Source: a virus. From it: a DNA stretch of 41,266 bases. The stretch lies in the UHGV virus genome UHGV-0150473. One strand, written 5' to 3'. Below the pieces are notes generated by a model. It made no database searches. It was not told where the DNA came from and saw nothing but the letters and a program-made list of their open reading frames with translations. This document shows positions 16,860 through 32,251 of this stretch, one piece after another. The position numbers were made by a program, and so were the translations under genes. Position 1 is the stretch's first letter. Each line of letters opens with the position of its first letter.

Positions 16860-17281
16860 TGTTTAAATTTATTTAAAAATAATGAAACCAGTTGAAAAGT
16901 TCTTGATTGTTCTTCATTGAAGAACATGCTTTAGCCTTAGAGCCACAAGGGATTGAACCAATGCGTTCTCGATTGGAGGTGTTTTTACTACTCACCTACC
17001 AGAATTATATTTTATATTATATATTTTTCTACAAATAGAGTAGAATATATGAAGAACACAGAGAACAGTTATAATAAAATAAGCTAAGAATGTTGGTTTA
17101 TCAATGTTTATAGGTGTTCTTCATTGGAATATTTGGTTACTTAAAAAGAGAACACATCAAGAACATCAAGAACGCATGAAGAACATTTCATTGGTTATTA
17201 ATGATTAATCTATTCCCTAAAGTACAAATAAGTATGGTATAATATAGAAGTAAAGTAAAAACATATTAGGAGGAATTAATT
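16860..17281. promoter_or_regulatory. divergent early/late control region with GAAGAACA iterons, perfect 9-1-9 palindrome TGTTCTTCATTGAAGAACA, AT-rich tract; candidate origin/switch
   Basis: Eight or more copies of GAAGAACA/TGTTCTTC within 300 bp; AT-rich 16985-17045; divergent promoters (minus TTGACA at ~16836, plus TGgTATAAT at 17235-17243). Confidence 0.5.
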
Positions 17282-17482: not shown

Positions 17483-17730
17483 TGGAACATGAACTATATA
17501 ATAAGACAGATAAGCAGTTACTAAAGAGTAACAAGGTGGACCTAGTGGCATACATCAGAACACTGGAGGGTACACTAGCCACATACGTTAACAATGCAGT
17601 AGAACCATTAGATAGTGAAGGGAATGTATATGATAGTACACAACCATCTATCACTGAACCAACACCACAACACTTGACATCATATACCTTTACTGATACA
17701 GTAACTAAGAAAGACATCTACTCATTCTAA
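17482..17730 (+). CDS. hypothetical protein (82 aa)
   Basis: TAATG coupling both sides. Confidence 0.45.
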   Translation: MEHELYNKTDKQLLKSNKVDLVAYIRTLEGTLATYVNNAVEPLDSEGNVYDSTQPSITEPTPQHLTSYTFTDTVTKKDIYSF

Positions 17731-18125
17731 TGTATAAGAAGTGCAAGGTTGCTTTATGTAGAGAATACGTAAAGCAACCAGAGGTGTATTGTGATAAGCA
17801 CAAAGGTAACGCAGCCACACAATACAACAAGTATGTGCGAACTAATCCACAGAACAAAAGGTATGCAGAGTTCTACCAGTCAAGTGAATGGAAAAGGTTA
17901 AGACAATACAAGTTAAGTATCAATCCAATGTGTGAAGTATGTGAACGCAATGACCACACCAAGACGCTTGCCACTATCGTCCACCATGTGGAGGAAATAC
18001 GTACACCAATTGGTTGGGAAAAACGTTTAGATATTAATAATTTAGAATCAATTTGTCAATCCTGTCACAATAGAGAGGACCACGCTCATTCCTTTAAAAA
18101 TGCAGGTAGGGCTAACCATAAATAA
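17730..18125 (+). CDS. terminase-associated HNH endonuclease
   Basis: Cys pairs and 'HHVEEI...CQSCHN' HNH motif; located immediately upstream of cos/terS as in cos-type HK97-like phages. Confidence 0.75.
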   Translation: MYKKCKVALCREYVKQPEVYCDKHKGNAATQYNKYVRTNPQNKRYAEFYQSSEWKRLRQYKLSINPMCEVCERNDHTKTLATIVHHVEEIRTPIGWEKRLDINNLESICQSCHNREDHAHSFKNAGRANHK

Positions 18126-18200
18126 TTTTAAGGGGGATAGCGCCAAAAGCGAGGGGAGGGTAGCTGAAAATTTTAACCCCCCCCGCCAAATTTTTGGTGG
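18126..18200. other. candidate cohesive-end (cos) site region: anomalous GC-rich tracts (GGGGGATAGCGCC, GAGGGGAGGG, CCCCCCCCGCC) in AT-rich genome
   Basis: Position between HNH and terS; compositional anomaly. Confidence 0.4.
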
Positions 18201-18402
18201 CTACAATCGGAGATTCCTTCTTTTCACACAGAATTCTAAAAACGAAGTTTCAAAACAGCCTTTTTCCCTCGTAAAAAACGATTCAAAACCGGTTTCTTTT
18301 CAATAATATCAAACGTTTCACGCATTGTTTCATAATCTCACTAATACGAATTTCTTCCCTCATAAACAGTACAAAACCTGGTTTCTCAAACAATAGGTTT
18401 TG

Positions 18403-18411
18403 TGCTATAAT
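18403..18411 (+). promoter_or_regulatory. late-arm extended -10 promoter TGcTATAAT (class also at 17235, ~19580, ~19690, 26927, 27672, 32211, ~36845)
   Basis: TGnTATAAT without recognisable -35, recurring upstream of late genes. Confidence 0.45.
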
Positions 18412-18464
18412 ATTGTTAGGGACTTTTCTTTTAAACTAAAATGTAACGCAAAGGAGGTTGACGA

Positions 18465-18638
18465 ATGCCAGCACCAAAACCTATTATGGTAAAAGATTTG
18501 CGAACACAGCAAACAAGAGCTTTCAAATCGCAAACAGAAGCAGACAAATTTTATGGTAAAAAATCAGGTTACTTCAAAGACATCAAAACTAAACTAGGTG
18601 GTAAGAATCGCCACTATGAAATTATTGAAGTTGTATAA
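18465..18638 (+). CDS. small basic protein (57 aa, MPAPKPIMVKDL...) upstream of terS
   Basis: Not in ORF track; RBS AAAGGAGG + 7 nt; promoter TGcTATAAT at 18403-18411. Confidence 0.45.
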   Translation: MPAPKPIMVKDLRTQQTRAFKSQTEADKFYGKKSGYFKDIKTKLGGKNRHYEIIEVV

Positions 18639-18652
18639 GGAGGTGAAAAATA

Positions 18653-19126
18653 ATGGGTAGACCAAGAAAGTTAATCAATGCCCAAGTTGGCAACCTTACA
18701 CAAGAGCAACAACACCAACGCAAAAAGGAAGAAGAAAAGTTATATAACTACGAGAAGTTAGACTTTTCATATTATCCAGCTGGATTGTTGCAACAAGCCT
18801 ACCACGAGTGGGAACGTATTTCACACTTTATTGGTGACCTACCAATTTCAGAACTTGACCAACAAGCAATGGTTAGGTATTGCAATTATAGTTACCTATA
18901 TTCAGAAATGGCTGAACAAGTTGCATATGAAGGACCTTTGACAGAAGACGGAAAGTTAAACCCTAAAGTAACTGCTATGAACTCTTACTCAAAGGAACTA
19001 AAAAGCGCAACAAATGACTTAGGTTTAACTATCAATTCAAGATTAAAACTGGTAGCACCAAAAGAAGTTGAAGATGAATCAAAAGACCCATTAGGTCAAT
19101 TGCTTAAAATGCGCGCACAAGGTTAG
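18653..19126 (+). CDS. terS: terminase small subunit (P27 family)
   Basis: N-terminal 'MGRPRKL' motif, 157 aa, RBS AAGGAGGTG, upstream of terL. Confidence 0.7.
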   Translation: MGRPRKLINAQVGNLTQEQQHQRKKEEEKLYNYEKLDFSYYPAGLLQQAYHEWERISHFIGDLPISELDQQAMVRYCNYSYLYSEMAEQVAYEGPLTEDGKLNPKVTAMNSYSKELKSATNDLGLTINSRLKLVAPKEVEDESKDPLGQLLKMRAQG

Positions 19127-19714
19127 CAATTTGTGTTATAATGTATTTATGGAAAACGCCTTCCAGATGATTTGTAGGTTTAGAATTGTATTGAGGTTTA
19201 CAATTCAGGCGCAACTTTTGGGTAGAAGTTGCGGACATGTTAGCGGGCTTGGGTTGTAGCTTGCTCCCGCCTAGGGGCTTAACTAAGTAAAAAATAATAC
19301 TAGGAGTAGCAACTACTATGCTTAACAGTAGCGCAACCATAGGTGTGAAAACCTAACAACTGTACACATGAGGTGCAGTATAAAGAAGGGCTATCATGAG
19401 ATGGGTAATTGAGCAAAACTCTATTAAGTGTTGTGAGGTAGTCCGTAGGTGGAATGTCCACCAACCATATAACAACACTTAATCATTGAAGAAGGGTTGC
19501 AGTGCGACCAATTGACTTAGACTAGTTATCGCCTTATGGGAATAACTACCTAAGTCTTTTTATTTACACACAGAAACTATTTTTTATGTTATAATGTATA
19601 TAACGAGATTAAGTTTCAATCATGTTGACTTAGGTAAGTTTGTTATCCCCTTTGGATAAACTCATGACCTAAGTCTTTTTATTTATGCTATAATATAAAT
19701 AAGGAGGTATACAT
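19127..19714 (+). other. 588-bp non-coding structured region between terS and terL with tandem hairpin/T-tract + TGnTATAAT units
   Basis: No RBS-supported ORF; GC-richer hairpins (e.g. GGTGGAatgTCCACC 19446-19460); repeated 'cctaagtctttttattta' at 19543 and 19668 each followed by extended -10. Confidence 0.4.
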
Positions 19715-21442
19715 ATGAATAATATAGATTTTGTAGCTGATTATATTAATTATATAAGAGATAATCAAATACCAGTAGGTAATAAAATCAAACAAGCTAT
19801 TAGACGTCATGAGAAAGACTTAGAAAAATCAAAAGACCCAGCTTATCCATACTATTACGACCCAAGCGAAACATATGAACCAGTCGCATTTATTGAAATG
19901 TTACCAGACCCAAAAAGTAAAAAGACAAATAAACTAGCTAAGTTCCAGAAGTTTATTGTAGCATTAATCTATGGTTGGCGCAAAAAGAGTAATAAAATGC
20001 GCAGATTCAGAAAAGTATATATCAGTTTAGCACGTAAAAACGGTAAATCAATTCTTGTTGCTGGTATTTCATTATATGAGTTTATCTTAGGACAATATCC
20101 AAAAGCTTCAAGACAGATTGTAGCTGGCGCAAACACTAAAGAACAAGCTGGAATTGTATTCCGTATGTTAAAATCACAGCTGAAAGCATTGAGAAATTCA
20201 AGTGATAGTGTGCGTAGAATTACTAAGGTAAACAAGTATGACATTGAACATTTAGAAGATGAATCAACTGTTAAACCTTTAGCAAGTGACGCAGATAGTT
20301 TAGACGGACTAGACGTACTTTGCGGTGTATTAGATGAATACGGAGAAGCAAAAAGCACAGCATTAATTGAGGTATTAGAAAGTTCACAGTCACAACAACC
20401 ACAAGGTTTAATTTTGATTATTAGTACAACAACTAAAAATCTTAATGGACCAATGCACAGCATAGAATATCCATTTATAACTAAGCTATTAAATGAAGAG
20501 GTTGAAGCAGATGCATACCTTGCTTTATGTTGGGAAATGGATAGTATCAGCGAAGTTGACGACCAAGCCAATTGGATAAAATCAAACCCACTGTTTGAGA
20601 ATACTCAATTGTATGAAACCATGTATGAACATAAGGTTAATTCATTGGCAGAGTATAAAGCAAAAGGTGACATGAGTGGTTGGCTAACTAAAGAAATGAA
20701 CTTCTGGGTACAAGCTTCACAAGATAGTTTCATGGATAAAGAAAGCTGGGACGCAATCAAAGCAACAAAAGAATATGATATTAGAAAACGCCCTGTATTT
20801 ATTGGAATGGACTTATCACGCACAAAAGATATAACGGCGGTTAGCTGGATTATACCAATTGCAGAAGAAGAGAAGCTACTCGTAAACACCCATGGTTTCA
20901 TTTCATCAATTGGAGGTATTGAAAAGAAAATCCAAGAGGACAAAATACCATATCGCCAATATGAAAATGAAGGTATCGTTTCAATTAGTAAGTTAGAATC
21001 AGGATTGATTGACCATGCGGACATGTGCGACTGGATAGTTGATTTTGTTGAAACATATGACTTGGACCTACAAGGTATTTTCTATGATGGTCACCAAGCG
21101 TCACAATCAGTCTTGAGATTAGCGGAAGTTTTCGGTGAACGCTATCTAATTGAAGTACCACAGCGGATACAGTATTTAAACGCTCCTACTAAGTATCTAA
21201 GGGACGCAATATACAAAGGTGATATAATACATCAAAACAACCCACTACTCAATACAGCGATATATAATGCGTATATGAAAGAGTTTGCTGACAACATAGC
21301 AATTGAAAAGAAAATGAATCGTAACAAGATTGATTCATTGGATGCTTTAATAAATGCAATGAGTGAAGCAATGTATTATGACTTTGGATATTCAAGTTTT
21401 GAAAACATGTTAGAACAAGGTACATTTGGCTTTGGTGTTTAA
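19715..21442 (+). CDS. terL: terminase large subunit (Terminase_1 family)
   Basis: Walker A 'ARKNGKS', 575 aa, nuclease C-domain; RBS AAGGAGG. Confidence 0.9.
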   Translation: MNNIDFVADYINYIRDNQIPVGNKIKQAIRRHEKDLEKSKDPAYPYYYDPSETYEPVAFIEMLPDPKSKKTNKLAKFQKFIVALIYGWRKKSNKMRRFRKVYISLARKNGKSILVAGISLYEFILGQYPKASRQIVAGANTKEQAGIVFRMLKSQLKALRNSSDSVRRITKVNKYDIEHLEDESTVKPLASDADSLDGLDVLCGVLDEYGEAKSTALIEVLESSQSQQPQGLILIISTTTKNLNGPMHSIEYPFITKLLNEEVEADAYLALCWEMDSISEVDDQANWIKSNPLFENTQLYETMYEHKVNSLAEYKAKGDMSGWLTKEMNFWVQASQDSFMDKESWDAIKATKEYDIRKRPVFIGMDLSRTKDITAVSWIIPIAEEEKLLVNTHGFISSIGGIEKKIQEDKIPYRQYENEGIVSISKLESGLIDHADMCDWIVDFVETYDLDLQGIFYDGHQASQSVLRLAEVFGERYLIEVPQRIQYLNAPTKYLRDAIYKGDIIHQNNPLLNTAIYNAYMKEFADNIAIEKKMNRNKIDSLDALINAMSEAMYYDFGYSSFENMLEQGTFGFGV

Positions 21443-32179: not shown

Positions 32180-32212
32180 AAGACAACTCCTTTACAAGGG
32201 TTGTCTTTTGTG
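32180..32212 (+). terminator. intrinsic terminator after tape measure gene
   Basis: AAGACAAC...GTTGTCTT + TTGTGTT. Confidence 0.55.
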
Positions 32213-32251
32213 TTATAATACTAGTATAGTAAATTATAAAGGAGAATGAGA

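Follow-up and report, generated by a model that had tools for sequence, protein, structure and literature searches.

Why are the terminase genes terS and terL of an Enterococcus phage separated by 588 nt in which no gene is evident? The question is posed by the virus genome UHGV-0150473, of which one strand of 41,266 nt was analysed (hereafter the window) and which by its sequence belongs to a ~41-kb Enterococcus siphophage of the Efquatrovirus type. Its terS (18653–19126, + strand; Pfam Terminase_4, E=7e-13) and terL (19715–21442, + strand; ATG at 19715) enclose a spacer at 19127–19714 (+ strand), for which the original prediction considered a small RNA, a degenerate intron or mobile remnant, or a processing or attenuation site controlling terL. 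The first of these options is the one supported here, by promoter-like and terminator-like signals and by covariation of helices on the + strand. The spacer most likely comprises two non-coding RNA (ncRNA) genes, each predicted to have its own promoter-like box and terminator-like hairpin. The reading that 19127–19714 encodes an independently transcribed, structured and modular + strand ncRNA, and is a dispensable accessory locus, is well supported by sequence comparison. More tentatively, the locus may be of the moron type, with an accessory RNA that acts in trans, plausibly as an anti-defence decoy.

The spacer and its relatives

The spacer was compared with 62 distinct terS–terL sequences, compiled from IMG/VR loci (via terL), metagenome contigs, viral-contig DNA pattern matches and GenBank records. 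These fall into two groups: Efquatrovirus, with a terL at least 80% identical to that of the window, and the IME-EFm1/EFm5-like phages of Enterococcus faecium and other enterococci, with a terL 60–65% identical. All 106 of the 106 phage records matched by the spacer itself are Enterococcus phages, and the records fetched are classified as Efquatrovirus. A metagenome scan with a terL profile returned no relatives below 57% identity, and when viral contigs were scanned for patterns of conserved RNA segments, no phage lineage came up besides these two.

The description of the region as a 588-nt non-coding, GC-richer and strongly folding spacer is borne out. GC content is 0.40–0.44 across 19100–19500 versus 0.30–0.38 in the flanking genes, and folding compared with shuffled sequences gives z=-4.9 on the + strand and z=-6.0 on the - strand (z=-3.7 for the predicted RNA at 19149–19566). 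As also claimed, no open reading frame (ORF) supported by a ribosome-binding site (RBS) is present: among spacer ORFs of at least 30 aa, none has an RBS and none is common to more than near-identical relatives. Several GenBank records (L133, L135, L138, L141, L142 and L143) annotate 30–130-aa "hypothetical proteins" in the spacer, on either strand, and that of vB_Efm8_KEN21 places six hypothetical ORFs within it. These are probably gene-calling artefacts over structured RNA, because none has an RBS or is conserved. The window contains no tRNA or tmRNA, and neither a gathering-threshold Rfam scan of the whole window nor permissive scans of the region returned anything relevant; the window RNA matches no Rfam family.

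The two tandem units of hairpin and TGnTATAAT described earlier were likewise found. The 19-nt sequence ACCTAAGTCTTTTTATTTA occurs twice, 100% identical, at 19548–19566 and 19667–19685, each copy with a long hairpin before it (T1 and T2 below; dG -17.9 and -19.1 kcal/mol, z -5.2 and -4.4, respectively) and a TGnTATAAT box after it. A third box, TGTTATAAT at 19134–19142, lies 8 nt past the terS stop and had been overlooked. The individual strong hairpins quoted in the original prediction are present, but the pairings given for them are not the conserved registers. GGTGGAatgTCCACC (19448–19462), that is, the GGUGGA/UCCACC pairing, is specific to the lineage of the window, and at this site relatives have UAUGUGG[AAGGUCCGCCAA]CCACAUA, a stem that covaries. 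The GCGGG/CCCGC register is contradicted by variants with GCAGG or CCCAC, which retain AGCRGGCU/AGCUUGCU at 19242–19265.

Promoter-like boxes and terminator-like hairpins

A 20-nt box, TTTGTGyTATAAT..., is present in four copies beginning at 18399, 19130, 19583 and 19682 (direct repeat family D1). Across the whole window TGnTATAAT occurs 13 times against 4.2 expected, a count reached by 0/100 shuffles, and enrichment by chance is excluded. Outside the spacer the box stands before an RBS and ATG at six other sites of the late region. Copies on the + strand at 17235, 18403, 26926, 27670 and 32211 lie 20–45 nt upstream of an RBS and ATG, and the boxes are for this reason best read as extended -10 promoters of the host sigma-A RNA polymerase. 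Three exact matches to that promoter form (TGnTATAAT, with a start possible a few nt downstream) are found in the spacer; their -35 elements are weak (CGCACA for P1). P1 (19130–19149, + strand) reads TTTGTGTTATAATGTATTTA and includes the overlooked TGTTATAAT; its predicted start is at ~19149–19150. P2 (19583–19602, + strand) has TGTTATAAT at 19587–19595. Neither is followed by an RBS or ORF, and P1 and P2 are the sole intergenic + strand boxes in the window without an RBS and gene after them. P3 (TGCTATAAT at 19686–19694) and the terL RBS, AAGGAGG (19701–19707), together span 19686–19714 (+ strand), upstream of the terL ATG. This frame is shared with the relatives: a -10 box lies no more than 40 nt from the terS stop in 60/62 spacers and no more than 50 nt from the terL start in 60/62, with a T-run directly before the latter box in 59/62.

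Two hairpins resemble intrinsic terminators. T1 (19514–19565, + strand) has a stem at 19514–19556 with the base GACUUAG/CUAAGUC, followed by UUUUUAUUU. T2 (19627–19684) has a stem at 19627–19675 and a U-tract at 19676–19684 that is again UUUUUAUUU; together with a 5′ single strand it makes up the predicted RNA-2, of ~80 nt (19602–19684, + strand). The two share the base GACUUAG(G)/(C)CUAAGUC, which also forms the base stem of short terminators in two relatives (L007 and L010). Both have the stable stem-loop and U-tract of an intrinsic terminator, on stems that are long and GC-poor, and both were missed by a simple terminator scan because their loops exceed the 8-nt limit of the scanner. The T1–P2 cassette is sequence-identical in 9/9 relatives that carry it, and T2 is found as a module in 24 of the 44 IMG/VR–metagenome spacers, all of Efquatrovirus type. 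In the GenBank record of phage 9184 the annotators independently placed a terminator just before the terL RBS.

Another junction of this kind lies at 32180–32219, where the hairpin AAGACAACTCC...GGGTTGTCTTTT is directly followed by TGTGTTATAAT and the RBS of the gene at 32246. The late operon seems to be punctuated by terminator-then-promoter junctions in general. The 28 nt surrounding P2 (19574–19601) are 100% identical to sequences of Ligilactobacillus salivarius megaplasmids, in 2–3 copies and with no feature annotated there. This was the sole match of the spacer in BLAST searches against plasmids, in which no RNA module was matched.

Covarying RNA modules

Between P1 and T1 the predicted RNA-1 divides into a series of modules, all on the + strand. 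It begins with a conserved, mostly unpaired leader (AAAACGCCUUCCAGAUGAUUUGUAGG, 19153–19178), near-invariant in 13 relatives (alignment A3); exact complements of the leader elsewhere in the phage are no longer than 10 nt and lie on the strand opposite that of the genes. Hairpin H1 (GAAUUGUA/UACAAUUC, 19183–19206) has a G-rich loop, and two of its pairs change on both sides (AU/UA/GC and AU/GC) while 99% of alignment cells remain paired. Hairpin H2 (CGCAACUU/AAGUUGCG, 19210–19233) has a variable loop, with both sides changed in 4/8 pairs (CG->AU, CG->UA, UA->AU and UA->GC). A possible likeness of GGUUUAGAAUUGUA to the type II-A CRISPR repeat of E. faecalis was considered and set aside, as these bases form part of the covarying H1 stem.

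Domain C (19242–19358) comprises the hairpin AGCGGGCU/AGCUUGCU at 19242–19265 and a conserved branched region of ~90 nt. Its 10 unique relatives are 90–100% identical and show one compensatory pair, in addition to changes of G-U to A-U or G-C; because variation is low, the fold past the first hairpin is uncertain. It is followed by a portable 21-nt hairpin, ACUGUAC[ACAUGAG]GUGCAGU (19359–19379), which stands at differing positions in L002, L010, L017, L019, L137 and L140, and by a truncated hairpin, GCUAUCAUGAGAUGGGUA, with a deletion junction (19390–19411). Here the window is without ~40 nt of a module present in most relatives (AAGGA...UCCUU / GCUCUUA...UAAGUGAGC), a probable pseudoknot in which a compensatory change from AAGGA/UCCUU to AAGGC/GCCUU was seen by eye.

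In domain D (19423–19483), marked by a perfect inverted repeat (I17), a 12-bp outer helix (19423–19434 with 19472–19483) surrounds an inner hairpin (19446–19452 with 19465–19471). Three pairs in each helix change on both sides, with 98–100% of cells paired, and the inner loop is conserved among relatives. The inner stem of the window has one mismatch, and the alternative GGUGGA/UCCACC pairing is possible there. The last module before T1 is a small hairpin, GGUUGC[AGU]GCGACC (19495–19509), conserved in 13/14 sequences and holding an invariant U-G pair.

Covariation was tested against 500 shuffles, scored on cells, percentage paired and covariation score, with shifted registers as controls alongside. 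For domain B (H1 and H2; 13 sequences), 98% of cells are paired and 6 pairs are changed on both sides (24 cells), a result reached by 0/500 shuffles and compared with at most 1 such pair in shifted registers. For domain D (outer helix, inner hairpin and small hairpin; 14 sequences), 98% of cells are paired and 6 pairs are changed on both sides, again with 0/500 shuffles and at most 3 in shifted registers. The supported helices contain 35 G-U pairs versus 2 A-C pairs. Since a G-U pair would be a C-A mismatch on the opposite strand, the functional strand is the + strand, along which the promoter-like and terminator-like signals also run. The RNA structure of the spacer is under selection: compensatory changes uphold at least four helices in Efquatrovirus and more in the IME-EFm1-like genus, and loops are kept while stems vary.

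Module turnover, empty sites and other cargo

Spacer length ranges from 44 to 1927 nt across the relatives while structure is conserved, so that the condition under which the original prediction would fall, equal spacing with no conserved structure, does not apply. The Efquatrovirus RNA is a mosaic of common blocks, each of which may be present, absent, duplicated or moved: alternative 5′ modules, H1 with H2, domain C, the portable 21-nt hairpin, the probable pseudoknot module, domain D and the T1–P2 cassette. The shortest RNA-bearing spacers are of ~170 nt, one consisting of leader, H1, H2 and a short terminator (L007), the other of H2 and T2 only (L013).

The RNA of the IME-EFm1 group differs in sequence. 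Its alignment (A6: L021–L028, L032, L050–L053, L068, L070 and L074) has a conserved core of ~110 nt with a 7-bp long-range closing helix, AGUAUCU/AGAUACU, and covarying inner helices. Further covarying segments, CCCUAC/GUAGGG versus CCCUCU/AGAGGG, conflict with a nested fold, which suggests that the core contains a pseudoknot. At least one module (CCUACUGAUGUUUAAGGACAUUAUGCGCACCAUACGUGGC) is common to both groups.

A search for relatives without the insert disclosed rare, near-empty slots. In L006 the spacer is 44 nt long and consists of a promoter-like box and RBS only, between terS and terL genes 96–98% identical to those of the window. Among 116 matching GenBank records the junction is contiguous solely in vB_EfaS_Ef6.4, the insert being present in the other 115, and L071 is a 95-nt deletion form in the IME-EFm1-like genus. 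The spacer RNA is thus probably not essential; that empty sites are rare indicates that it is useful in nature.

In some IME-EFm1-like phages (L031:1067-2995, L033:2076-2947, L147:1105-1537, L023 and L144) the slot holds protein-coding cargo beside the RNA. This is a 229-aa DNA methyltransferase in L031 (phrog_56, E=8e-27), an HNH/NUMOD4 homing endonuclease in L033 and DELF1, and an ORF of ~86 aa without known function in L023 and EF36P1. As relatives carry other cargo there, the slot behaves like a hot spot for morons or accessory genes.

Orphan abiF motifs in sister phages

Permissive Rfam scans of 42 related loci gave a single meaningful match, the abiF RNA motif (RF03085), which is defined by stems of ~6 bp (outer) and 3 bp (inner) and by the conserved loop GCCUCUnAACnAUGC. 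Both phiSHEF4 (L016) and Paulomi (L133) score 31.1 bits, below the gathering score of 37, with E=0.0013 in a 631-nt search and 0.073 in 34.5 kb. An abiF-motif hairpin is present in 11/62 spacers, from both genera, and is the first module after the promoter box in those read closely. Carriers such as phiSHEF4, Paulomi, Ef212, phiNASRA1 and dArtagnan hold the motif with no toxin gene; by tblastn, neither the window nor phage loci L001–L076 yielded an Abi_2 gene. The phage abiF stems covary in 6/8 pairs, and 0/500 shuffles reach the observed cells, percentage paired or covariation score. A relation of the CCUCCUUAACCAAGUG module to abiF was also considered and rejected, as compensatory changes favour the AAGGA/UCCUU pairing and the abiF model gives no match.

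An 18-nt abiF core, GCGCCTCTTAACAATGCG, is found in 7/11 carriers and is identical to bacterial copies. Together with the typical covarying stem it is found at 55 bacterial loci; an Abi_2 gene lies directly downstream in 21 of the 44 that have enough sequence, four of these being confirmed by Pfam at E<=1e-51. Of 25 viral contigs with the 18-nt core, one (L166) has Abi_2 downstream and the other 24 have no detectable toxin gene; orphan abiF antitoxin motifs may be common in phages. In these contigs, L165, L158, L151/L157 and L150 among them, the exact core comes with a covarying stem, and in L167 (384–401) the distance from the core to a downstream packaging ATPase of phi29 type (Pfam Podovirus_Gp16, E=9e-69) is 52 nt. 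An Enterococcus plasmid carries a "drum RNA" at L149:69-166 (RF02958), whose 50 bits exceed the gathering score. An Abi family gene lies ~470 nt downstream of it, and the site has no abiF motif.

A phage RNA mimic of a type III antitoxin is reportedly found in Pectobacterium phage phiTE, as pseudo-ToxI. The abiF-motif RNA has been shown experimentally to be the antitoxin of the AbiF HEPN toxin, which it neutralises in trans by direct binding (PMC12373285; review PMC12737573). The simplest reading of an orphan copy in a lytic phage is thus that of a decoy antidote like pseudo-ToxI. In phiSHEF4 the motif begins ~8–9 nt from the predicted transcript start, and in the native antitoxin RCd22 it stands at the same distance of 8–9 nt (PMC12373285).

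A model for the locus and its alternatives

In the model proposed here, host sigma-A RNA polymerase would start at P1, just past the terS stop, and make RNA-1 (~415 nt, ~19149–19565) before stopping at T1; it would restart at P2 to make RNA-2, ending at T2, and a third start at P3 would give the terL mRNA. RNA-1 would consist of hairpin modules strung together and largely autonomous, their loops conserved and their stems covarying, and the repeated promoter and terminator sequences would allow recombination between phages, by which cassettes may be duplicated, deleted or exchanged. The RNA would act in trans and not on terL, most plausibly as a decoy that binds and so titrates RNA-binding defence proteins of the host. 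The model is the orphan antitoxin motif abiF, with which this RNA opens in sister phages. We infer that the boxes fire, the hairpins terminate, the RNA acts in trans and the window modules (leader, H1, H2, C and D) are decoys. The arguments for a protein-binding decoy in trans are that loops are conserved on covarying stems, modules are freely exchanged, an antitoxin mimic is present in sister RNAs and anti-restriction-type cargo is found in the slot.

Several points weigh against this model. The promoters and terminators of the spacer are predictions from sequence. An abiF motif is absent from the window (a 1.8-kb Rfam scan gave none at E<=10, and a regular expression matched neither strand), and the window modules have no likeness to any Rfam family or any plasmid sequence, so that for this phage a decoy role rests on analogy with the sister phages. 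A scan with the 18-mer core, one genome per species, found no Enterococcus copy, and no abiF motif precedes the Abi family gene examined on an Enterococcus plasmid; with no Enterococcus link to abiF found, a host target is not established even for the relatives that carry the motif. The fixed position beside terL in two genera could point to a packaging-linked role. Finally, the window copy has lost ~40 nt of one module and has four substitutions in the inner hairpin and loop of domain D, including one stem mismatch, and its RNA may be decaying.

It is possible to extend the decoy model further, to a reading that we consider rather unlikely, in which the slot is an RNA "anti-defence island", a recombination-ready array whose modules mimic RNA partners, antitoxins or guides, each of a different host RNA-binding abortive-infection protein. 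Were this so, abiF would simply be the first of these modules to come to light, and the leader, H1, H2, C and D would be decoys for defence-associated RNAs yet undescribed, which could be found in host genomes using models of the modules.

The main rival to a decoy in trans is a role in cis, in terL expression or terS mRNA stability. The terminators would uncouple terL from terS and shield P3, and the hairpins would stabilise the 3′ end of the terS mRNA or be RNase sites, so setting the TerS:TerL ratio. Such control would account for a region that lies directly upstream of terL in both genera and for the similar junction at 32180–32219, and transcripts from the box at 18403 would traverse the region to T1, making the RNA also a terS 3′ untranslated region. 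However, a stabiliser or insulator requires one hairpin, not 130–700 nt of covarying modules with conserved loops, and P1 and P2 would be purposeless. Module content is wholly different among phages with near-identical terS and terL, L006 and Ef6.4 make do with a promoter-like box and RBS, and the slot takes protein-coding cargo too; a cis role is judged unlikely. The attenuation or processing site suggested by the original prediction is not favoured either. A fresh promoter-like box stands right after each terminator, and spacers of 44 or 95 nt keep a single box and RBS; the spacer is probably not an attenuator. Still less probable is a packaging-associated or cabRNA-like RNA, which would work with the terminase or be sensed by host cGAS-like cyclases, as in staphylococcal phages. 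Staphylococcal siphophages make a structured RNA of ~400 nt from the terS–terL boundary, where diverse phages make non-homologous hairpin RNAs (PMC10686824), and an RNA of ~415 nt is predicted at the same junction here; the orphan abiF motif upstream of a packaging ATPase in L167 shows that such motifs in unrelated viral contigs may also lie just upstream of a packaging gene. The cabRNA, however, sits within coding sequence, without its own promoter or terminator, and cabRNAs have no common sequence or structure to compare with. An essential role in packaging is at odds with the absence of the RNA from rare relatives. The cos site, moreover, lies upstream of terS and not in the spacer (see below).

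That the spacer is functionless debris, made up of scars of insertion and deletion by homing endonucleases and of recombination between promoter and terminator repeats, is very improbable. Extreme length variation, mosaicism, the HNH homing endonuclease genes in the slot of L033 and DELF1 and the deletion within the window's own copy are what debris would leave, but compensatory base changes maintain helices in both genera, conserved loops stand on varying stems, G-U pairs are strongly asymmetric between the strands and nearly all GenBank relatives (115/116) retain the insert. The "mobile remnant" of the original prediction therefore survives in part: the slot gains and loses cassettes, a homing endonuclease among them in two relatives, but its RNA modules, being selected for structure, are not debris. 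In Gram-positive phages, terminase genes are known to contain group I introns. For a degenerate self-splicing intron here, or for hidden small protein genes, the probability is slighter still. No group I or group II intron was matched in Rfam scans, permissive ones included, of the window and 42 related loci, and terS and terL are complete, separate ORFs, the former ending at a stop codon and the latter starting at its own RBS and ATG. Some GenBank annotators do call hypothetical ORFs of 30–80 aa in the spacer, but these have no RBS and none is conserved beyond near-identical sequences.

The region upstream of terS

The GenBank record of IME-EFm1, whose sequence is 100% identical to L027, starts 447 nt upstream of terS, and the genome ends of this phage have been mapped experimentally (PMC4445525). 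Because the mapped end has this position, cos is placed in the preceding intergenic region and not in the terS–terL spacer. In the window, an HNH endonuclease gene (17730–18125, + strand; Pfam HNH) is followed by a GC-rich intergenic region (18126–18464, + strand) and by a conserved 57-aa ORF with a strong RBS, directly upstream of terS (18465–18638, + strand; phrog_10805, E=7e-36), which belongs to a conserved phage family without known function. The segment at 18126–18400, between the HNH gene and this small ORF, has G-runs and a C8 run in addition to its high GC, and by analogy is likely to be the cos region. The published cohesive-end sequence of IME-EF4 and its flanks were not found in the window.

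Implications

Efquatrovirus and IME-EFm1-like phages are candidates for therapy against E. faecalis and E. faecium, and public annotations leave 0.2–0.7 kb beside terL blank or filled with spurious small ORFs. A covarying, modular RNA without an Rfam match apparently adds a new class of structured RNA to phage biology. Orphan abiF motifs in the sister phages and in 24/25 viral contigs suggest that mimicry of the AbiF antitoxin may be a widespread counter-defence; the literature searched contains no description of the spacer RNA or of orphan abiF motifs in phages. If the other modules act likewise, they would offer a route to unknown RNA-dependent defence systems and would be a determinant of host range.

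Comparison with known systems

Morons, in the definition that Hendrix and colleagues gave for lambdoid phages, are independent promoter–gene–terminator cassettes placed between conserved late genes. The spacer locus resembles them in having promoter-like and terminator-like signals of its own, in lying between two conserved genes and in being present, absent or different in close relatives, with "empty" sites in L006, Ef6.4 and L071; in some relatives the slot also holds a methyltransferase or endonuclease. It differs in that its cargo is a non-coding structured RNA, the cassette is itself modular and the slot is filled in nearly all members of two genera.

Antitoxin mimicry, as in pseudo-ToxI and the AbiF/abiF-RNA pair (PMC12373285), has its counterpart in the toxin-less abiF motif of the sister phages. 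In contrast, the window lacks that motif, its modules match no known antitoxin, and there are no tandem repeats of one unit. The cabRNA (PMC10686824) is likewise a structured RNA of ~400 nt at the terS–terL junction of a Gram-positive siphophage, and it is only in position and size that the spacer RNA matches it. It overlaps coding sequence, has no promoter or terminator of its own, is defined by activating and binding the CD-NTase CdnE of CBASS, and has no sequence relationship to the spacer RNA.

ROOL and GOLLD, ornate RNAs associated with phages of Lactobacillales, are similarly several hundred nt long, multi-domain and phage-borne, with covarying helices and no assigned function. The spacer RNA differs from them in its greater module turnover and in its fixed promoter/terminator frame beside terL, and the ROOL and GOLLD Rfam models gave no match to the window or its relatives at permissive E-values. 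The PR′–6S RNA–tR′ unit of lambda also combines a constitutive-looking box with a short ncRNA that ends at a terminator in the late region. In the spacer, by contrast, a new box follows each terminator, so that terL needs no read-through, and terS lies upstream of the unit; no Q-like antiterminator was identified, no search aimed at one having been made.

The RNA itself thus matches no Rfam family and is without description in the literature searched, while its arrangement, that of an accessory cassette or moron, is already known. By analogy, RNA mimicry of defence partners, a mechanism established in other systems, is the likely mode of action.

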